A DNA stretch of 63,394 nucleotides, filler included, from Rhabdomonas costata (lineage: Eukaryota), in the NCBI GenBank assembly GCA_019059605.1. It is 25 parts of 25 records of this genome, joined end to end, with 100 filler letters (N's around TTAATTAATTAA, not from the genome) between each part and the next. Parts side by side here need not be neighbours in the genome. Positions count along the whole stretch, not along the records: positions 22,840 to 25,275 come from JAHMHO010003419.1; 24 more parts are not named here. One strand, written 5' to 3'. Under the pieces are notes generated by a model, which was not told the origin of the DNA, ran no database searches, and saw nothing but the letters and a program-made list of their open reading frames with translations. The position numbers and the translations under genes were made by a program. Positions 22,505 to 58,923 of the stretch are shown piece by piece (within the stretch, counting starts at the first letter, position 1; the number at the start of each line of letters is the position of its first letter).

Positions 22505-22959
22505 GTATGGATCCCCACACATCATCCACTTGCCCGCATGTCCAAAAGACCAGATCTCAAATTTTAAAAACTTGAAAAATCCCAATAAATCCTTTACCGG
22601 ATTTATATGATTTTCTCGAAGCAGACAAAACCACCACGCATGCATTCGAAGCCCATCATTACCGCTTGGCTTTATATCTGCTCCCCCATTCCGACCCATC
22701 CTCAGTGAAAACGTGGGCTCTATTATTGCGTCTTTGTTTNNNNNNNNNNNNNNNNNNNNNNNNNNNNNNNNNNNNNNNNNNNNTTAATTAATTAANNNNN
22801 NNNNNNNNNNNNNNNNNNNNNNNNNNNNNNNNNNNNNNNGGGGTGGTTGAGGGATGAGGAGTGATAGGTGTATAGAAGAAGAGAGGCACGAACTGATGTG
22901 AGTGCCGACATGAGATACTAGTCAGGATGTCATCTCGTACCACGATGCCATCCTTCCTT

Positions 22960-23736
22960 CTATTCCTACTCGCTACGCTCGTGACCTTCTATTACGGCAT
23001 GCCTCACTGCGTTCGACATGCCTTCATGTAAGTGTATGTTAAAGTGTATGCTGATACCCCATGCCTCCCTCGCTGCGCTTCGTGAGTCATGGGGCCCCTT
23101 CTTACATTCTACTACGCATTCTCGGTGCCTCGAATGCTTCGTGTGTATTCTATTACGGTATGCCTCACTGCGTTCGACATGCCTTCATGATAGAGGGAGG
23201 AGCGACTGAGAGGGAGCGACGGGAAGGATACAATGATAGTCGCATGGTCCCTTCACTGCGTTCAGGGCCCATGCTCCAACTCAGAAGAGAAGACCGCCTT
23301 CGGCGACGCTCTCACTACGTTCGTTACGCTGCGCTCCACTCACTTCGTTCTGTGAATGTGGTAGTTCGTCGTTCCACCGCTACGCGGTTCCACTCCTCAC
23401 CTTTCTATCGATCACGTAGTCGTCATGATGCTCGGTCCCTCGCATCATTCCTCCACTGGTCGCATACCACTGACACGGTTACGCATTCTCCAACGATGAC
23501 GTCAGGAGGCTCACGTCCTATCGCATCCTTCCTCTACATGTGGTTCGTTCCACAGCGATGCGGTTCCACTCACAGGTCGTCAGTCACTCACTGCGTTCGT
23601 TCCTTCCTCCTGACGTCCTCACTCGCTGCGCTCGTTCCTTCTGTCCTACTACGCATGATGCCCCTACGTGACATCATGCTACGTGTATGAAGATAGAAGG
23701 GATGTTAAAATGTATGCTGATACCCCATGCCTCCCT
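22960..23736. repeat. Dense array of short mini-hairpin motifs with internal direct repeats (organelle/ssDNA-like, possible NUMT)
   Basis: Recurrent motifs are CTCGCTACGCTCG, CTCGCTGCGCTCG, CACTGCGTTCG, CACTACGTTCG, CACTTCGTTC and CGCCTTCGGCG. There is a ~42-bp repeat (22987-23028 vs 23148-23189) and a ~34-bp repeat (23037-23070 vs 23703-23736). Confidence 0.75.
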
Positions 23737-26563
23737 ATGAATCCCGCTGTGCTGCCCAAGTGGGGATTGTGAATCATGCTAGGGTCCTTGATGTGCTGGG
23801 CCGTGGTTTGCCTTTGCCTGCTTGTTGTGGGCCGCTTCTTTTCCTCGCACCACATATTATTGGGTGGAGTGTCGACAATTGGCGGGTTTGTTGTGGTGAA
23901 GGAGCTTATGTTCTCTGCAAACAGAGCCTTTGTCGTTCTTCCCTTCACACTTTCTTGCCGATGTCCGCCCTGCAACTCTCGCCTGTGGTTCGAGTGGTGA
24001 TGTGCTACACCCATAACCCCTACTCCTTTGAAGGTACATGGGGCTCCTGCGTGTACTAATTAATAATAGCATCGAGGAAGGGTTTGGCTAGCCCTTCTTT
24101 TGAGCAGCACTCAACCGCTTATCCGTGATTGGCATGGCTTCTGTGCTTAGGTTGGTTTCCTACATGCTTCGGTTGCCTTTGGGGTCGACCCTTTTACAAA
24201 AAGCCAAAACAAGGACATCAAGGACATCACCTCGATTTTTGCAAATTTCAGACGGAACTGAAGCCTGGATGCGTCGTGCACACTGTTAGAGAAAAGTTAA
24301 ATGGGAGTGGGGGTAAGAAGAGTGGGGGTAAGAACCCTATAATGTATCGTGCCGGCACTGTGCTTGTAGCCGTCAGATGCAGTGTTAGGGTGCAGTTCCA
24401 TGCCTTGTGCCAGCATTGTGCGAAGGTATGCGTGCGAAATCGCAGGGGCCCTTGGAGTACTTCGCTACGAGATTCTTAATTCGTCTTCCATGGCTGCGGA
24501 GGTGTTGAAACGGTGTGCCTCATGTACTTTCTTTTCTCCTAGTATTAGCACAGAGCGGGGACAGGTCCGTGACGTCGGCTCCTTTTGGCAAAGCACATAT
24601 TTTGGTTGATGGATGATCCCAACTAACCGCAGCGCGCAGAACCTTTCGGTTGTCGCGACCCAAACGACGGTAGTCTCTCTTCAATGAGAGTGATGCCAGC
24701 AGACACCAGCAGCCGCGCTGGCGGATGCGGCCAGATAGCTCGCTGGGCAGCCCCCCGTTTTTGTGGGTTTTTGGGCAATTTATGAGCAATATGGGCACTG
24801 AAGACCTCCTCCAAGGAGGTAATTTCTCTGGCTGAGCCCCCTCCCCCGCCAGGCCGCGGCTTGCATTGTTCTTGTGTGGTTGCAAACTTATCCCCGCTCT
24901 CAGAACACAGACACTCCCGGCAAGTACGGGAGGTTCCACTGTGGTCTCAGCCGGAGCGACGGCTCTCTCTCTCTCTCTCTCTCTTCTGGCTACCGGCTCA
25001 GACCTTGTGACTGAAAACAAAGGCCCGGAGGGTAGTCAGCATCTCAGGGATGGGACCTCAGGGTTTGTGGTGGAAAAATTGTGATATCTGATGCTCCGTT
25101 GTGCAATCCAAACATCGCATCGCCTTCTGTAGTAGCAATGTCAGCGCTTGTCGACCACAGCGACCACAGCGGAGTGAACTATGTACCATGTGAGAACGAT
25201 GGATGGTTTGATGGTGCGGGCACAGCCCTTCGCGCGAAGATGTGGCGAGAATGCCCGTACCCTCCCGCACCGAGANNNNNNNNNNNNNNNNNNNNNNNNN
25301 NNNNNNNNNNNNNNNNNNNTTAATTAATTAANNNNNNNNNNNNNNNNNNNNNNNNNNNNNNNNNNNNNNNNNNNNTGTGGGGGTGGTTGTTACCAAGCCG
25401 TGCCGTTATGACCCGACCCGTCCTTGCAGGAATGTATCCATTTTGTGCTTTTATTTGTTGTTGTGGTTTTGCGGGGGGGTGCGGGTAAGACGTGTTCTTC
25501 CTCTATCTGCAAAAAGTTGCCATCATCGTCATCAGTGAAGTGTGAAGTTGGGGCGATGGTTAGGGGAGAGGTTATGGAAGAGCCCCGTTCTCCTGTTGGC
25601 TGTTTCGAGGTCTCTTGTACTTGCCACGGAACCTCTTCTTTTTTTCTTTGTAGTAACATCAGCTGCGAGGAGCGAAGAAACCGCTATGCCCACCTCGGTT
25701 CGCTGCAGTCCCATTCCTCCACCCTCACGAGGAGGTCACCGATTGCATTGAAGCGAAGGCAACAGGGGGCCCTGTAAAACATTCTCATCTCGCTTCTTTG
25801 CGTCTTTTCCATTACCGCAGTATCTCTCTTGCTTATCCACATCCATGGTCGCGACAATTTTCTTCCAGCTAAATGTCAAGCCATAAACGTGCTGGTAATA
25901 TCAGAGCACTGTCCCTCGCACAATTATTTTCAACGAGGAACACCACAAGCACCGCATGCGCTGCACTTCCTTTTCCGGTTTTTTTTGTAATCCTTCTTTT
26001 TCGAGGATGTTTTTAACTCTGCCGCTTTGACGGCCCGGCCTTTGATTTCTGCCTCAGGCTTTACTTTGGCAGCGCGGACCCAACCACCAACCCTGACTTC
26101 TGGGACTGGACCCACGTCGAGGTGCGCCAGGGGCGGCCGGACGTTGCCTTGAATTACGGCTTTTTGCTTAACATTCTACGTCCAACTGCATGGTCTAAAA
26201 TTCCACAAAATAGACCCATAGAAAGTGGACAATCGCAGCATCGCTGTCTGCTGGGTTATATTTATTGTTTTGCGTTGGGAAGCGACCAAAACAGCAAAAA
26301 GGTAGCCCGTGGCCTGCAGGGTTCGGCAATCCCCAGAGAATTACTGGAAGCACTCAGGAGTGCAGCTGAACCATGGTTCCCATGATTGGCCCCGGCCTGA
26401 AGGGATTTTTTTACCAGATATGATCACAGTGTTCTACACGTCGGCATCCCGCGCAGTTGCAATGAAAAGTTTGGTTTTCCTGTGTAGGGCATTCTCAGGA
26501 ATTGTTTTCCATCCCCTCCATCCCGAGACGTGCATTTATGCGCGCGCCTCTTCTCGTGTGTAG

Positions 26564-30661: not shown

Positions 30662-32761
30662 CCTACTCTGGGGATCGAAATCACGATGGAGCCCTCCACC
30701 ACCCTCCACTGCGTCACCGAGCCCATCCCGCGGGCCCTGGCTGCCTTGATCCCCTTCAAGCGTGGCCCAGCGGAAGTCATTCCTGGAGGCCAGCTTGAGA
30801 ACCTTGAGAGTGCACCCCAAAGGTTGACGGAAGCCGCGGCGCCAGCCCCGCCGGATGGCGTGGGCACCGAAGCCCAGGCTGCCTCGCCACGTCCTACGGC
30901 GGCCTTGGTGACGTTCCGGCCCTCCTGCAAGGGCATTGGGGAAGGGTCGGCTACCGCTGCAATGGAGATGGTTTTTGTGGTGGACTGCAGCGGGAGCATG
31001 TCCGGCACTCGGATTGGGCAGGCGAAGGTGGGCGACGATAGCCGCAGGACCTTTTTATCTCCTCTCGTCTGCTTCCTTCGATATCGCCTCGATTTTCCAC
31101 AATTCCTACTTCAACTGTGACTTCATTCACAGGTTGTCTAGTTCGATGGGTCTTGACTTGACATTCGATATTGCCTGTGGTTGACATGACCTGCTCCCTT
31201 ACCTCTACTACACTCCAACCTATCTGCATAGCACAGGCGCTACCGTGCACTCCTTCGGCTCGTTGTGCCTTCTCCGGTTCGTTGGTTCTCAGCTACTCCC
31301 CCGTTCTTCTCTCTCTCTCTCCTTCCCGCACAGACAGCACTGCAGCTGTTTCTTCGAGGACTGCCTCTGGGCTGCTTCTTCAATGTCGTGATGTTCGGTT
31401 CCACCTTCCGCTCGCTGTTTCCCCGCAGCAAGCTGTACACGGCAGACACAATGAAGGAGGCCGCGGAGTGTGCCAGCGAGCTGGACGCCAGCATGGGTGG
31501 GACGGAGCTTCTGAGCCCCTTGCGCACGATTCTGCGATGGCCCTCCCCTACGAGTCCGTTCGGCAGTCTCCTGCGGGCCCTCCGTCCTACCCCCACGAGC
31601 TTGGAAGTGATTCGGAGTGTGGTGGTGCTGACGGATGGCGAGGTATCAGACAAGGAGTCAGTCTTTGAGGAGGTGCGCCAGAGGTGCACCCCGGGGCCTG
31701 CGCTGGGGTGCGTCTCGCGGGTGTTTGCCCTGGGGATTGGGGAGGCGGACCGGTCCCTGATCCAAGGGCTTGCGGAGCACGGCGGCGGGGCGTGCGACTT
31801 TTCTGTGCCTTGTCCGACCGAAGGCGGAGCTCTGGAGCAGAAGGTGCTGCAGCTTACCCAGCTGGCGTTGAAAGGGGCGCCGCCCGTGCTTGTGGGGGCG
31901 CGGGTGGAGTGGGGAGGTCTGAGCGTGCGGCAGGCTCCGTCCGCCATCCCGGCGGCCTACCTCTCCCATGAACTGGTGCTCTGCGCGGTCATTGAGGACC
32001 TTCGCGAGGAGACTACGATTACGCTGAAGGGCATGATTGGCTCCGAAGCCGTGGAAGCCACGGCGGTCCTCACCCCAGCACCCCCGGGTTGCGGCGCTGC
32101 CCCTGCCCCTGGCCCTGTGGCTCGGCTGGGGGTGCACCAGCTGATTCAGGAGTTGGAGAAGGATCCGCAGCTGCGTCGCGAAGTGACGGCGCTGAGCATA
32201 GGGTTTGAGCTGGTGTCCTGCTTTACGGGATTGGTTGTGGTCTCGGGCACCGCTGCAGAGGCTCCCAGTGCCCCGTTAGCTCGGAGTATGGTGATTTCAG
32301 AAGTGCCTGAGATGCCAGCGAGTTTTTCTCCTGGCGGTGAGCACGTCGCTCGTTCCAGTAGCTTGAGAGCTCAATTGGACTTGCTTAATGCTTCGCTTCG
32401 TCCGCTCGGGTGTGCTTCTTTGGAAATGGGATCACCTTGTGTTCTAAGCAGATGTCGATGCGCTGTCGCGGGAGGCAAGGCTCTGAATTATGGTCCTGTG
32501 CCGTGCAAAAGCCTCTCTCTTGGATGCAAGCGAAGGCGCAATCCTTTTGCGGCCGCAGCTGGGGCTCTTGGAGCAGCCTTTCACGCCGCGGGCAAGCTTT
32601 TCAAGAGCTTCCCCATAAAAAGAGGTCTGTTACATCATTCTGTTGGCATATGCGTGGGTGGGGTCTTTAATGGTTTAAAGGCCCCTTCCAGGCATTTAAT
32701 TTTATCGCGGATGGGGTTTACTATGGGCTTGTCATCTTTCGGGCTTTCCCAAAGAAAGTAA
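30662..32761 (+). CDS. von Willebrand factor A domain protein (VIT-VWA / VWA5A-like), partial; exons 30662-31027 and 31334-32761
   Basis: EMVFVVDCSGSMSGTRIGQAK|TALQLFLRGLPLGCFFNVVMFGS..ASMGGTELLSPL..VVVLTDGEV..RVFALGIG contains the MIDAS DxSxS, T and D residues. Confidence 0.85.
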
Positions 32762-50160: not shown

Positions 50161-50842
50161 AATTAATTCTTTATTTTATTTGATTTTTTGACGTAATTTG
50201 ACGGCATTTCACGGAATTTGTTTTTCGACTATGATAAACACTATTTACTAATTTATTGCAAGAACTACATTTTGTTATACAACAGGACATTGTTGAAAAT
50301 TCTGAAAATGTTTGACTGACTTAATTACATCGCACTATTTTATAATGGCATAGGTTCACGTTACAGGACAATTGTAGCAACAAACCATTGTAGCAACAAA
50401 ACGCACCAAGGATTAGTGCAGGCAACCGTCTATGACACAGGAAAGCATGGAAATGAGTGTATCATTATCCTCAAGGATCCTGAAGAATTGAAGAAGACTT
50501 CCATTAAATCTACTTTCTGCACTTGTAGCATGTCCGATAAGCTGAAGAGCCAGTGTGGCATACATCACTCAAGGCCACCCACAAGGGCAACTGCGGTCAT
50601 CTATCAGAACGCCATACTACTCCAAAAACTACCTCAGTTTCCCTTCATCCTTGCAAAGAACCTCCAAATAACGATAACATAGCTGAAAGGAGAGCTCCGC
50701 CCCCCCGGACACCCACGCAGGTGCATGGCACCCCAACCCCNNNNNNNNNNNNNNNNNNNNNNNNNNNNNNNNNNNNNNNNNNNNTTAATTAATTAANNNN
50801 NNNNNNNNNNNNNNNNNNNNNNNNNNNNNNNNNNNNNNNNGA

Positions 50843-53144
<2,302 letters not shown>

Positions 53145-55896
53145 CTGTGACCAAAAGATGGTTCCAACGAGCAAACGAAAATGTAGCAAACGATGAGAAG
53201 GTGAACAATTCTGAACTACACACAAGCTGCACGTTCTGCAACTTGGGGAGTTGCGCGAATTTTTCCCAAAAACCNNNNNNNNNNNNNNNNNNNNNNNNNN
53301 NNNNNNNNNNNNNNNNNNTTAATTAATTAANNNNNNNNNNNNNNNNNNNNNNNNNNNNNNNNNNNNNNNNNNNNATCTCGTCTTGCATAACCAGTTCATG
53401 GTGGGGCCATGACGTCGTCAAGAATTTCCGAGTTTACATTTCTTGTGGATACAGATTCCAATGTAGACCGCTCAATCAGCTTTTCGAATCCATTTTTTTT
53501 GGATTTTATAATTACATATTTTCAACACAGTATTATTGTTTCTAGAGAATTTGAGGTTCAAATGAGACGTCGGGAAATTCAAAAATGGAAATAATAAGAA
53601 CCTGTTTGTACTTTATTCAATTAATTTATATTGATAAGTTAAATTGCATCTTCATATTTTCATGTCGGCCTTTTCCGATCGTGGTTTTCCGATCGGGGTG
53701 TAGGAGGAAGTTCACAGCATCGCAGCATGTCATTGCGATTTACCAGCCAGTGTAGGAAGGTGTGGCTCTTCATATTGAAGAATTCCGGCCCCTTCTTAGA
53801 GGAAGAGCATAGTGCGTGCAGGAGGAAGTATGCAGTGGTCGGGAAAGATCGTTTGAAGCACTGTTAGTAAGAGGGCAGCAAGAGATGAAGTGGTTAGAGT
53901 CTGGACCGCACAAAAATGTGAGTTGGGAGAGGGCTCCAGCCGGAAGGATGGTAGAAAGCAAATATGTCTCCACAGACACATTCTTCTCAAAGTGAACAAA
54001 GTTTTGACCAACTAACCCTAACTAAACCTGTGCGTAGTGGGATGGGTCGTGGCCAAACACAGATGACATGCACTTGACCATGGTGAATAGAATACTTTGA
54101 CAATCACCGGGCACTTTCCCTTCCCTCCGCACATGCAGAGACAGAGGCTATCAGAGAGCAGGAATGGAATTCGGACCTAGGCCAACCAATTTACGGAGAG
54201 TTAGGCTTGAGAAGAGGGTGTGAAGGGGAGATTATACAGGGTTTACCAGGAATCCTGGGCACACCCTCAACAAACCCAGATTTCTAAAAGTGACCAAGGT
54301 CCATCTTTTGCCTGTCTTCTCTCAACTCCTCTTTCTCAAAACTCCAAAATCTATCTTCTCTCCTTAACAGCCCTGTATCATTCATTCCGTTTTGTACTTT
54401 GGCGCTTTTGCACTTTCCGGGTGAATGGAGCTACGAGCTCGAGGGACACCACCAGTTTCGTCCTCACCCTCTTCAGCTCCACTGGTGGCTATTTTTTTTT
54501 TCAAATTCAGTTGTCAAACACTGAACAAATCATCATTTGGGTGTTTTGATCAATTTTGGTTTCAAAGCGGACGGCCGTAACGGGGGAATTGTTCCCTGTT
54601 TCACACTCGGTATATAAGTTTCATCTGACAACGTCTCGAAAAAAATCGGGATCGTCTTGCACCTATTTTTTGGTGCAAGTGTTGTTGTCGCCATTCTAGT
54701 GTTGCTGTCAGTTGTCCATGTGACAGCACAGAACCAGATGACGGCGTTTTTTTAATTGAGCAATAGTTCCTTATTTTTCAGGTCTCGTCCTACATGGGAT
54801 GGTTGGTGCCCTTTCCCGCTGTTGGCGCTGTTCGAAGCAAACGAGCAAGCCCTGTCCAGCGGATGCTTCCTCCTGTTCATCGTAATGCGGCTTTTCAGCG
54901 AAGACTTCACCAAAGTCGGAAAGGTTTGTTCACTCTTTTCCTCCTCCTCCCCTTTCCACTTCCCAGAAGGTGCTGGTTGCCCTGTACAACATTGAAATTG
55001 TTCGGCACCCTCTTTCACGCTGAACCTTCCTGTTTTCAAGTGCCAAGGAAGCGAAAGAGGAACAGTTACCACCGATGCCAACAGATGCCACAGCACTCCT
55101 GTTTCTGTATTTGTGTGGTGTCTGCAAAGTCTCGACAATGTGGAGCGCTCTTTTTTGCCAGTCAGCAGGAGGACTGAAATCGACCAAAAATGGATATTCC
55201 ACAGGCGAAGCAATACAAGGGGGTAAGGAGCTTCCGTGGTTGACGTGAGCCGAGTGCACGAGCGATTGGTTTTCACCCATCGTTTTACAGCGGTTTCCTT
55301 ACGATCGTCTGGCGTGATGGGGTGCCCCCCTGAGCCTTCGTGTTCCAGAGGATCCAGCAATATCCTCGAACTTGTTTCAAAGGTTTCTGCAACTGCTTCT
55401 CCCGTCCGTATGTTCAGGAAAAGCGGAAACTTTAAGATTACAAAAAAGAATGGTCACAGTTCGGGTGGAAGGATAGAACCGAGTCAACAAGGTGTTGCAA
55501 GGGCAAAGGTGGGTTGCAAAGCAAAGGCAAGGCACGAAGGTGCGCATTTGGGCAACCTTCGCAGTTGGTCATTGGCGGTATCAAGGGAAAAATCACAAAG
55601 CTGAAGCCGGACTTCGTTCGCATGTATGCCTTTTGTGAAATCTTGGGGCTGGAGAAGGTCTGTGTGCTCTAAGAAAGCACAAGGCAGAAAAGGAAAAAGA
55701 CAGAAAAGTACGGAAGAATCAAAGGCTCTTGCTTCTAAGTCGCTGAAAAAAGTATAGTACAGTGCCAACACACAACCACACACACCCCACANNNNNNNNN
55801 NNNNNNNNNNNNNNNNNNNNNNNNNNNNNNNNNNNTTAATTAATTAANNNNNNNNNNNNNNNNNNNNNNNNNNNNNNNNNNNNNNNNNNNNGGGTT

Positions 55897-56047
55897 GGTG
55901 GGAAAGTCTTTTCCTTGTTAAGTACACAGTGTGCGCAGGCAATCACAAATCGCTGAGCGGTCCCTAGGAAGCGGTCCCTCGCCCCGCTCAGCGATTTGTG
56001 ATTGCCTGCGCACACTGTGTGCTTAACAAGGAAAAGACTTTCCCACC
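55897..56047. repeat. Long inverted repeat: 64-bp arms (55897-55960 / 55984-56047), 23-nt loop
   Basis: The arms are reverse complements except for one T/G position. Confidence 0.95.
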
Positions 56048-56956
56048 GAGAACTCACTTCTCCCCGTCACAACCAGCAAAGGGACAGGAGCCCATCGAGC
56101 CTCAGCCCCGTGCCTCACTGCTGAGACACAAAATCGAACTGCGGAGAAACACACCGGTTGGGCATAGGCCTGAGCTCTTCCACCAGCCATCGCTGCCTGG
56201 GGGGGCATCCATCGCTGGCCAGCGGAATAGCCCTGCGCCGCCGCCGCGGGATCCCCAGGACCTCCCGCCGGGGGACTACCTCCTCCCTGCTGTCCTACTC
56301 GTCCGCCCATATCCCAGCCATGGGCTAGTCCTTAGCCAGCAGTAGTTTTCAGCTGCTAAGCAAAACAATCATCCAGGGGGCGCTGGCAAAGCTTACCTAA
56401 CCCCCTCACACAAAAATACAATCACTTCGAGAGTGCGGCATACTTCACCCTCACTACTTTTAGTTAATCCGTTACCTCTGTAACCGTTACCACTCCCACC
56501 CCCAACTTCCATTGGGTCCTCAAAACCATTGACATTCCAACTTGATGGTTGGTTCATAAATGCCGCTGACAATGTGCCTGTCGTCCCATTGGGTGGTGGT
56601 TAGCAGATGCCAGCGAGTGTGGGTGCATCGCACGCAAAGAAGAGCTGGTCCCTATCGAGGCGTATACCACACAGAAAAAGATCACGGACCTTTTTCTAAC
56701 ACGGGATACCAACCAGCCTCACTGTTCTTTGCGCTTCCAGAAGCAAGCATTGCAGTGCAACCTACGCAACACAGAGGAAGCAGAAGCTTCACCTTAGCGC
56801 ACGGAAAGTTCATCGCATCCCATTAATGGAGCAGCCTACTAACATATCAGAGAGAAAGAAAGAGAGAGCCTGCAGGCAGTCGTACCCGTCTAAATTCAAC
56901 AGCAACAAACCAGAATATCTGCCGAACTGCTCGGAAGAGTCCTGTTCACGACATGT

Positions 56957-57856
56957 TTAGGGCGGTGGCCGGGGAGCTTGATCCCTATTCCTCAGCAAAG
57001 CCTCCTTCACCGTCTTATGGCCTTGGCGGCGAGCCCACTCCAACGCTGTGACACCATCTCCGTCCTTCGCCTCCGCACACGCACTGAACCGAAGCAGCAC
57101 CTTCACCACCTGTGCATGGCCGAAGTACGATGCCACAATAAGAGGGGTATCGCCGTTTTCCTTGGCACGGTTGACGTCCGCCCGACTGTCCAGCAGGAGT
57201 TCCACGAGCTTGCGGTGGCCGTCCATGGACGCGAAGAAAAGAGCAGAGGCGCCAATCTTCGTCGCTCGATTGACGTCCGCGCGATGGCGCAGCAGTAATT
57301 CCGCAAGCTTGCAGTGACCCATGTGGGAAGCAATCACAAGAGGAGAGGACCCCGTCTTCGTGACGTGATTGACGTCCTCCTGGTAGCGCAGCAGTAGCTT
57401 TGCAACCTTGTGATGTCCATTTTGGCTGGCAATGTAAAGTGGAGAGGTGCTGTCCTTCTCGGCCTGGTTGACGTCCGCCTGTCCACGTAGCAGAAGCTCC
57501 ACGAGCTCCACATGCCCCTCTTCCGACGCCACATAGAGAGGAGAGGCACCATCCAAAGTGAAAGCAAGGCTAACCCGCACCGTCAGGGCCTTTGCCAACA
57601 TCTCACGCAGCATCTCCCGCGAAGCAAGCGCCCCGCACGAATCAAGGAAGACGTGGCGAAGGTGAGTAAGGGCGTACCACTGCCGGCACACCCCACACAC
57701 AGAGCGGTGGCTGAGAGCAAAGCTGAAAATCATCTGCAGGCAGTCCATGGGAAATCCTGAGGCGATCCGGCAGCCGCCTTGTCGGTAAACTGCCCGATAA
57801 GAGAACAATTCCGACGATGTGTCAGGCCCCCGGACACACCTCATACATTGCATCAT
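56957..57856 (-). CDS. Intronless F-box-like + ankyrin-repeat protein
   Basis: FPMDCLQMIFSF..SVCGVCRQWYAL is F-box-like. It is followed by ~6 ankyrin repeats (DGASPLYVASEEGHVELVELLL, SPLYIASQNGH, NGDTPLIVASYFGH, DGVTALEWARRQGH). Confidence 0.85.
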   Translation of the reverse strand: MMQCMRCVRGPDTSSELFSYRAVYRQGGCRIASGFPMDCLQMIFSFALSHRSVCGVCRQWYALTHLRHVFLDSCGALASREMLREMLAKALTVRVSLAFTLDGASPLYVASEEGHVELVELLLRGQADVNQAEKDSTSPLYIASQNGHHKVAKLLLRYQEDVNHVTKTGSSPLVIASHMGHCKLAELLLRHRADVNRATKIGASALFFASMDGHRKLVELLLDSRADVNRAKENGDTPLIVASYFGHAQVVKVLLRFSACAEAKDGDGVTALEWARRQGHKTVKEALLRNRDQAPRPPP

Positions 57857-58923
57857 TGGCAGTGTAGTTAGAGAAAAACTAAAAGAGAACCGGCAAGCAA
57901 CCAATCAAGAACGTAGAAATAAAACAAAGCGCAAGGACGTTCAACTGTGAAGACCCCAAAAAGGCAAGAAAGACTTGGCTCACTGTGCGGGGTACCATGC
58001 TGCAAAAAGGAGAAAGGAAAAATGGGGGCCTCTTCTCGAAGCTCGAAGTCCATAAAATTGGTCATCCGGACACTAAACATTTTTTTCAACCAGAAATAGG
58101 CCCGAAACTAAACTCTCGGACTACTGAGATCAACGGCAATGTGCAGCGGCGCCCACATTGCCAAGGTGCACAACTGGAATGCAGTCATGTAACAAAAGAC
58201 TGGGTGACAACAATTTTTTTCCTGAGGCTGACAAGAAAGAGTAGCAAGTGGATCTGAACACAAGACCGCCAGCCTTTGCGGAAAATCGATTCGATAAGAA
58301 TTCCAGAGTTTTGGCAAACGCAACANNNNNNNNNNNNNNNNNNNNNNNNNNNNNNNNNNNNNNNNNNNNTTAATTAATTAANNNNNNNNNNNNNNNNNNN
58401 NNNNNNNNNNNNNNNNNNNNNNNNNGGGGGGGGTGTGGAGCAAAGTCGCACAATCGACGCGGATGCACGCTGAGGCAGATGGGCGTTTATCTCACCATGA
58501 GATCGGCAGGTGGTTTTATTCGCATGCTCGTTTCGCCTTTGAATGTAAATTACTTTTCCAACCATTTGTTGGGCATGCGTCCTCAATCGCCTGCCCTGTT
58601 GTGCAGTCCTGTCTCAAGCATCTGCCAACGCTGAACGCTTGGTGTCAATAATGCAGCTTTTGACGTGCTTCACAAAATCTGGGCTGGCTTTGGTGCATGG
58701 CATGTGAAACTGCAGTTGAGCTGCTCAGGTTTTAATCTGTAGCCTTTGGTAGGTCAGACTGCAGCTGTCTTCTATCTCTTCTCTCCTGTGCACGCGCAGT
58801 TCTGTTCAAAAGCTCGTTCGTTCTCTTTGTCTGTGTGGGTGTTGTTGTCGAAGAAAGAAAGAAAACACCGACTATCTGCCCGTTTTCATTACCGAACTCA
58901 CCTCCTTTCTGCGTGAGTGAGAG

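Follow-up and report, generated by a model that had tools for sequence, protein, structure and literature searches.

The 5′ end of contig 22840-25275, part of a 63,394-base stretch of DNA from Rhabdomonas costata (assembly GCA_019059605.1; the whole stretch is called the window below), carries a block, 22887-23736, in which a 13-nt hairpin module is repeated. The motif is restricted to one strand, its stem positions covary, the composition of the block is foreign, and the same module is present in prokaryote and phage arrays. Taken together, these features suggest that the block could be a local, strand-specific hairpin array of the REP/SRM kind that acts as single-stranded DNA (ssDNA), a reading which we hold tentatively and somewhat short of an even balance. 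With regard to its origin, the DNA of the block may be a prokaryote- or phage-type element present through integration or contamination; this, too, falls a little below an even balance, and it overlaps with the possibility of an amplification chimera discussed below. The window is composed of 25 separate contigs of ~2.43 kb each, sorted by length and connected by identical N44-TTAATTAATTAA-N44 linkers (e.g., 22740-22839), and a feature that spans a linker therefore cannot be taken as real.

The 13-mer CTCRCTNCGYTCG occurs in nine copies from 22969 to 23634, all of them on the plus strand when up to two mismatches are allowed. Six copies match CTCRCTRCGYTCG exactly (22969, 23003, 23164, 23311, 23587, and 23622), again on the plus strand only, against an expectation of 0.02, and six matches were reached in 0 of 100 shuffles; relaxed matching (≤2 mismatches) adds the copies at 23069, 23252, and 23339. 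Over the whole window, 19 relaxed matches were found vs 12.1 expected, and the 10 that lie outside the array are scattered and at chance level. The first-pass annotation had described an array of GNA-triloop mini-hairpin motifs at 22960-23736, and with six exact and nine relaxed copies on a single strand this description is borne out.

On the minus strand, the motif reads CGARCGNAGYGAG, which, judged from its sequence, can fold around a G6-N7-A8 triloop with C1-G13, R4-Y10, and C5-G9 pairs, while G2·A12 and A3·G11 would form G·A pairs. The R4/Y10 pair is Watson-Crick in 9/9 array copies (three G..C and six A..T), and the outer C1-G13 pair is swapped for T-A in the copy at 23252. When the shorter form xCGNAGx′ was counted in the block, 12 mini-hairpins were detected on the minus strand and one on the plus strand, vs 1.39 ± 1.14 (maximum 5) in 500 dinucleotide-preserving shuffles and 0.86 per 850 nt of single strand in the other contigs. 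The 12 minus-strand cores comprise five GCGNAGC, six ACGNAGT, and one CCGAAGG, and every one of them has the C-G-closed GNA triloop with at least one further Watson-Crick pair that characterizes mini-hairpin DNA. As ssDNA, the minus strand of 22887-23780 folds with z = −3.1 relative to shuffles, compared with z = +0.5 for the control segment 24100-24993. Hairpin density in general was rejected as a signal, as stems of ≥6 bp are only ~2-fold denser than the contig average; what distinguishes the block is the specific motif together with its strand bias.

The motif was searched in metagenome contigs, viral contigs, and prokaryote species genomes as a paired 13-mer, TCACTRCGYTCG-N8-38-CTCRCTRCGYTCG. 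This pattern matches at least 118 metagenome contigs and 24 viral contigs (together a set of 142 listed loci) as well as at least 120 prokaryote species genomes from many phyla of bacteria and archaea, the loci being labeled L001-L262. Genome matches listed include Bacteroidota, Acidobacteriota, Burkholderiales, Chloroflexota, actinomycetes, Akkermansia, Methanoculleus, and haloarchaea. Two composition-matched control patterns, namely the complement read 3′-5′ and a permuted motif, each matched 0 viral contigs. Some of the pattern matches are plain coding 9-mer repeats, and many others are non-coding arrays of a spacer plus the 13-mer, with periods of ~19-50 bp.

Positions 4 and 10 are left free by the second motif of the pattern, and the R/Y pair formed by them is Watson-Crick in 336/379 distinct instances from the 142 listed metagenome and viral loci and in 235/277 from the 120 listed genome loci; about 52% would be expected under independence, as calculated from the counts behind the former figure. 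A complementary stem of ≥5 bp that differs between loci and is capped by the 13-mer was found in 21/142 of the listed metagenome and viral loci and 11/120 of the listed genome loci. In five prokaryote genomes, the 13-mer is clustered and has 11-55 copies, vs 0-13 for a reversed control. One bacterial locus (L116) has six copies on one strand in ~0.9 kb of pure repeat, which is the scale of the present block; its neighbors, judged from their translations, appear to be an outer-membrane efflux gene and an ABC transporter ATPase gene. The word TCTAYTAC is shared by that locus and the block, and common descent was rejected in favor of chance: a 13-mer has the word nearby in only 1/262 loci, and overall the word is not enriched (58 occurrences vs ~110 expected). 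As a unit, the module appears to be undescribed in the searched papers; in a literal search, supplements aside, eight papers contained any of six 13-mer strings, and in none was the string part of the title or abstract.

Several viral loci deserve separate mention. A contig assigned to a metagenome-assembled genome (MAG) of a giant virus (L131), which is AT-rich, has the 13-mer in its G..C form arrayed at 250-520 and 1250-1600, with periods of 38-49 bp and on both strands; if the binning of this contig is right, the module may also occur in viruses of eukaryotes. Five phage contigs (L124, L125, L137, L139, and L141) resemble one another in a non-coding region where two or three copies of the 13-mer lie ~30-46 nt apart, and seven open reading frames (ORFs) around the L124 cluster have 0 matches to PHROG families. 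An Rfam search of five related motif loci returned nothing relevant.

In composition, the block stands apart from the sequence to which it is joined. Its dinucleotide distance (×1000) from the other 24 contigs is 269, or 258 when motif copies and duplicated words are masked, vs 90 ± 27, never exceeding 168, for 48 pieces of 850 bp drawn from the other contigs. The remainder of the contig, 23737-25275, has a distance of 43 and, like the other contigs, low CpG (0.72) and TpA (0.61). A block of foreign composition joined to host-like sequence is therefore supported, and the earlier statement that the array is fused to ordinary sequence agrees with these values. Homology past 23736 was rejected (local alignment score of 22 vs a null of 19.1 ± 2.3), no primer-like G/T-only or A/C-only run is present in the sequence at the 23736 junction, and eight scanned ORFs of 23737-25275 gave no Pfam match at or above the cut-off. 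The features of the contig are as follows.

22840-22849, plus strand: G/T-only 10-mer opening the contig, probably the residue of what we take to be a degenerate amplification primer
22850-22886, plus strand: C-free, purine-rich lead-in of 37 nt; the first 47 nt of the contig are without C
22887-23736, minus strand: hairpin array, non-coding, GC ~53%, ~1.2 diverged copies of a ~666-bp unit
22969-22981, minus strand: 13-mer copy 1, G..C type, GTA loop
22987-23028 and 23148-23189, plus strand: 42-nt repeat, 98% identical
23003-23015, minus strand: 13-mer copy 2, A..T type, GCA loop, within the GGCATG/CATGCC stem 22996-23022
23036-23070 and 23702-23736, plus strand: 35-nt repeat, 97% identical, the copies marking the ~666-bp unit
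23069-23081, minus strand: 13-mer copy 3, two-mismatch variant, G..C type, within the CCCCATG/CATGGGG stem 23057-23094
23116-23137, no strand assigned: GCATTC/GAATGC hairpin, with the same loop as the hairpin 23425-23448
23164-23176, minus strand: 13-mer copy 4, A..T type, within the second copy of the 42-nt repeat
23252-23264, minus strand: 13-mer copy 5, variant with outer C-G changed to T-A, within the stem 23242-23274
23297-23303, minus strand: extra GNA mini-hairpin CCGAAGG, the core of CGCCGAAGGCG
23311-23323, minus strand: 13-mer copy 6, A..T type, GTA loop
23328-23334, minus strand: extra GNA mini-hairpin GCGCAGC
23339-23351, minus strand: 13-mer copy 7, one-mismatch variant, GAA loop
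23369-23395 and 23545-23571, plus strand: 27-nt repeat, 89% identical
23379-23385, minus strand: extra GNA mini-hairpin GCGTAGC, within CCGCGTAGCGG
23587-23599, minus strand: 13-mer copy 8, A..T type
23622-23634, minus strand: 13-mer copy 9, G..C type
23736/23737, no strand assigned: end of the detectable repeat and of the foreign composition, at a point that corresponds to a hairpin loop in the first unit
23737-25275, no strand assigned: host-like non-coding remainder, including a (CT)11 microsatellite at 24963-24984

In an offset scan, the block matches itself best at 666, and a colinear alignment of 22900-23100 to 23560-23760 has 75% column identity; therefore, the block represents ~1.2 diverged copies of a ~666-bp unit. 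A short-period tandem repeat was rejected, as Tandem Repeats Finder detected nothing in the array and the only offsets, 666 and 161, correspond to two duplicated words. The longer internal repeats pointed out in the first-pass annotation are real (the 42-nt and 35-nt pairs listed above), and the stem quoted there at 23244-23272 was found as well, with one T/C mismatch; that nothing similar occurs elsewhere in the window also held, with zero sequence sharing between the block and the other contigs. Words of the form GCATG are the basis of the stems. Common flanks, TCTAYTAC upstream and TWCRTGT downstream, surround the hairpins at 22996-23022, 23116-23137, and 23653-23679, and the stems and loops of these hairpins differ.

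Coding and RNA functions were both tried for the block and rejected. A plus-strand frame, 23055-23690, is open for 211 aa and is without a Pfam family; given that it has no relatives among 1612 candidates and that the 13-mer occurs in all three frames, the block is not coding, and the open frame is a by-product of a purine-poor strand. For structured RNA, the window has 0 matches at Rfam gathering thresholds and three chance-level matches at E up to 10.

Three known systems invite comparison. According to Chenal et al. 2025 (PMC11893778), SsnA, a 94-aa GIY-YIG nuclease, binds and cuts the NTS/SRM hairpin repeats, acting on ssDNA only and on one strand only; these repeats correspond to the dRS3 or CGTC-tagged REPs of Di Nocera et al. 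2013 (PMC3733652). The present array is similar in that its hairpins are oriented, strand-specific, and locally clustered, with 9/9 copies on one strand, and it would likewise act as ssDNA. Unlike SRM, the copies here have neither the CGTC/GTCAT tag nor an AT-starting 8-9-bp stem with a 4-5-nt loop, no ssnA-like gene was found in the window, and the host appears to be a eukaryote. Some metagenome and genome loci with the module connect to this system: at L054, an ORF of 94 aa with a GIY-YIG match (Pfam E = 5.8e-16) is flanked by GTCAT-tagged hairpins with the 13-mer, and in the genome G005 an SsnA-like gene is bracketed by 13-mer arrays. This arrangement matches, in part, that of the NTS/SRM-SsnA system (PMC11893778). 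The L054 protein itself matches in 1/142 listed loci, and the published SRM pattern has three matches in the same 142 loci, which makes it too narrow for this type of hairpin.

Like the present hairpins, GTAG-tagged REP/BIME elements, which are mobilized by RAYT/HUH proteins, are short and extragenic and are proposed to act as ssDNA. GTAG adjoins the hairpin in some prokaryotic 13-mer arrays (L145 and L164) and is enriched 2.6-fold on the minus strand of the present block, where, unlike in REPs, it is located mostly inside GNA loops or 3′ of stems rather than as a 5′ tag. REPs typically form head-to-head dimers, whereas all nine copies here are co-oriented, and in the five prokaryote genomes the 13-mer has 11-55 copies rather than hundreds. 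In the window, no copies lie in the other 24 contigs. A 20-40-bp palindrome with an unpaired terminal GTAG or CGTC, the hallmark of REPs, is absent from the block, in which CGTC has only four occurrences and the flanks are TCTAYTAC/TWCRTGT. The block is REP/SRM-like and falls outside the REP and SRM definitions as published, with no tag, no dimer organization, and, in the window, no partner gene.

With respect to the third system, d(GCGNAGC) mini-hairpins are described as exceptionally stable and as occurring at priming sites of ssDNA phages in a review (PMC13037366). The core of the present motif is the same C-G-closed GNA triloop, and 5/12 cores are exact GCGNAGC. Unlike the single hairpins of phage origins, the core is here embedded in a conserved 13-mer with G·A-type flanks and is repeated 9-12 times.

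A function of the minus strand in the ssDNA state may be proposed from three features, namely the bias of the motif to this strand, its covariation, and a GNA core whose stability is specific to DNA; among known mechanisms, REP/RAYT and SRM/Ssn come closest. Exposure of this strand as ssDNA in replication, repair, uptake, or rolling-circle copying would let each module snap into a compact hairpin, which longer variable stems would often extend. Such hairpins would resist single-strand-binding proteins and could be recognized, cleaved, or used for priming by ssDNA-specific enzymes, the candidate partners being GIY-YIG nucleases of the SsnA type, HUH transposases, and primases.

A number of results weigh against a REP/SRM-like array of prokaryotic or phage origin. 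In the window, neither the published SRM pattern (0 matches) nor the expression GTCAY-N0-8-13mer was found, and tblastn with the L054 protein as the query detected no GIY-YIG gene in the 63 kb. Among prokaryotes, the GTCAY-tagged form is present in only 15/142 listed loci, and a single SsnA-like query was matched in only 2/5 array-bearing genomes; for these two reasons, most 13-mer arrays need not be Ssn targets. As for relatives of the block, blastn against the 142 loci gave motif-length matches only, k-mer sharing is at background level, 22-mers of the 42-nt and 35-nt repeats have 0 matches in viral contigs, the 42-mer word has 0 matches in species genomes, no match was found in plasmids or phages, and at the protein level 1612 candidates contained no relative of the open frame. 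The remainder of the contig is eukaryote-like and non-coding, and the entire contig can therefore not be bacterial. Finally, the searched collections are biased to prokaryotes and viruses, and the motif may be equally common in eukaryotic or organellar DNA.

The other contigs of the window bear on how the junction at 23736 is to be read. A G/T-only run of ≥10 nt opens 10/25 contigs, and an A/C-only run of ≥10 nt closes 14/25; examples of such single-class runs are found at the following positions.

25376-25391: G/T-only or A/C-only run at a contig end
45772-45785: G/T-only or A/C-only run at a contig end
53765-53791: G/T-only or A/C-only run at a contig end

We take these ends to be the footprint of whole-genome amplification with degenerate primers, the type of primer or kit being our assumption, and chimeras and uneven coverage are therefore expected in the assembly. 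An inverted self-match of 150 nt, near-perfect (91%), is located at 55897-56047, right where contig 55892-58325 begins; snap-back during amplification could have produced it as an artefact, or the palindrome could be a natural one.

An AAA-ATPase of the proteasome type is encoded on the minus strand at 50841-51400 in two exons split by ~270 nt of non-coding sequence and is the clearest sign of an assembly that looks to come from an intron-bearing eukaryote. On the plus strand, a 509-aa open frame (31232-32761) has a VWA_3 domain (E = 2.5e-18); only two relatives, distant ones at 32-37% identity, were found for it in a collection of 5.8 billion proteins, and the organism therefore seems to be without a sequenced close relative in that collection. 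A Pfam scan of 48 ORFs of the window detected this VWA domain, the AAA exon, ankyrin in two ORFs, one of them with a sub-threshold F-box-like match, and weak dCMP-deaminase and RTC matches; no family was found for 43 of the 48.

The block could derive from bacteria or phages, its DNA having become joined to the host-like sequence by integration or as an amplification or assembly chimera, and it could equally be an element of the eukaryote or its organelle. If the join at 23736 is an artefact, in which amplification or assembly fused two unrelated templates, such as host DNA and bacterial or phage DNA from a contaminant, the fusion would be biologically meaningless, and the array would still be real DNA of some organism. 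The G/T-only and A/C-only contig ends typical of degenerate-primer amplification, the near-palindrome of 150 nt that opens another contig, the abrupt switch of composition together with a repeat unit cut inside a hairpin, and a kind of array, built of the 13-mer, that is typical of prokaryotes and phages all point in this direction, but the junction has no primer-like run and no bacterial or phage sequence was found to match the block. An artefact is considered unlikely. We regard as similarly unlikely a native nuclear repeat, i.e., a satellite, a repeat like those of ribosomal DNA spacers, or a transposon remnant, in which case the likeness to prokaryotes would be convergence on a stable hairpin, and the hairpins would be a by-product or have a local role, for example as a barrier to replication forks or transcription. 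The absence of copies from the other 24 contigs (~58.5 kb) speaks against such a repeat, and the 12:1 strand bias of the GNA cores, the covariation, and the exact 13-mer in hundreds of prokaryote and phage loci exceed what convergence on 7 nt would give. On the other hand, the block is contiguous with host-like sequence and has no primer footprint at the junction, its ~666-bp long-unit structure with diverged copies suits a nuclear repeat, satellites are often compositionally distinct, and no whole-block relative was found in the prokaryote or viral collections.

The first-pass annotation had favored a piece of a fragmented mitochondrial chromosome or a nuclear insertion of one. Mitochondrial or plastid non-coding DNA, or a nuclear insertion of such DNA, is here rated as less probable still than the artefact or the nuclear repeat. 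Foreign composition beside host-like DNA would suit it, and hairpin-repeat families are known in several organellar lineages, such as sponge RHEs, yeast GC clusters, Lobosphaera LIMP, and the plastid hairpin plasmids of Cladophorales. These families resemble the array in being dispersed or clustered non-coding hairpins for which roles as origins, processing sites, or mobile DNA were proposed; the Cladophorales plasmids, with GC-rich hairpins and conserved non-coding motifs, offer a conceptual parallel. LIMP, the sole organellar family compared at the level of sequence, is unrelated, with another sequence and with copies in both orientations. The array has no linked organellar gene: the contig has no organellar gene, tRNA (0), or rRNA signal in Rfam and Pfam at their cut-offs, its GC content is 53%, and mitochondria have 0 occurrences in the accessible text of the mini-hairpin review (PMC13037366). 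The mitochondrial assignment was accordingly not upheld; from the broader label "organellar or ssDNA-replicon-like", the ssDNA part stands insofar as strand-specific hairpins fit such a role, and the organellar part finds no support, as nothing organellar is linked to the array; an organellar or extrachromosomal origin nevertheless keeps a low probability. The preferred reading thus remains the REP/SRM-like array acting as ssDNA, at the tentative level given at the outset. It is improbable, to about the same degree as the organellar origin, that the array is the eukaryote's own DNA (nuclear, organellar, or episomal), an outpost of a module widespread in bacteria, archaea, and phages, which would then be a cross-domain signal for ssDNA enzymes and would mark an element that is replicated or mobilized as ssDNA.

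What the finding means depends in part on the join. If it is an amplification chimera with contaminant DNA, the present finding is an ordinary one. If the array is the eukaryote's own, then REP/SRM-type biology, in which ssDNA hairpin repeats are read by nucleases and transposases, would reach beyond prokaryotes, and the array would point to an ssDNA-based element or an organellar replicon in a poorly sampled lineage. Whatever the source of the contig, one exact, covarying 13-nt module is found in local arrays across many phyla of prokaryotes and also in phages. This cosmopolitan module may be a lead that outweighs the present block, which sits in a 2.4-kb contig from amplified DNA, and since SsnA-type genes adjoin only a subset of the arrays, it is a lead towards new ssDNA-specific enzymes and towards the function of the arrays.

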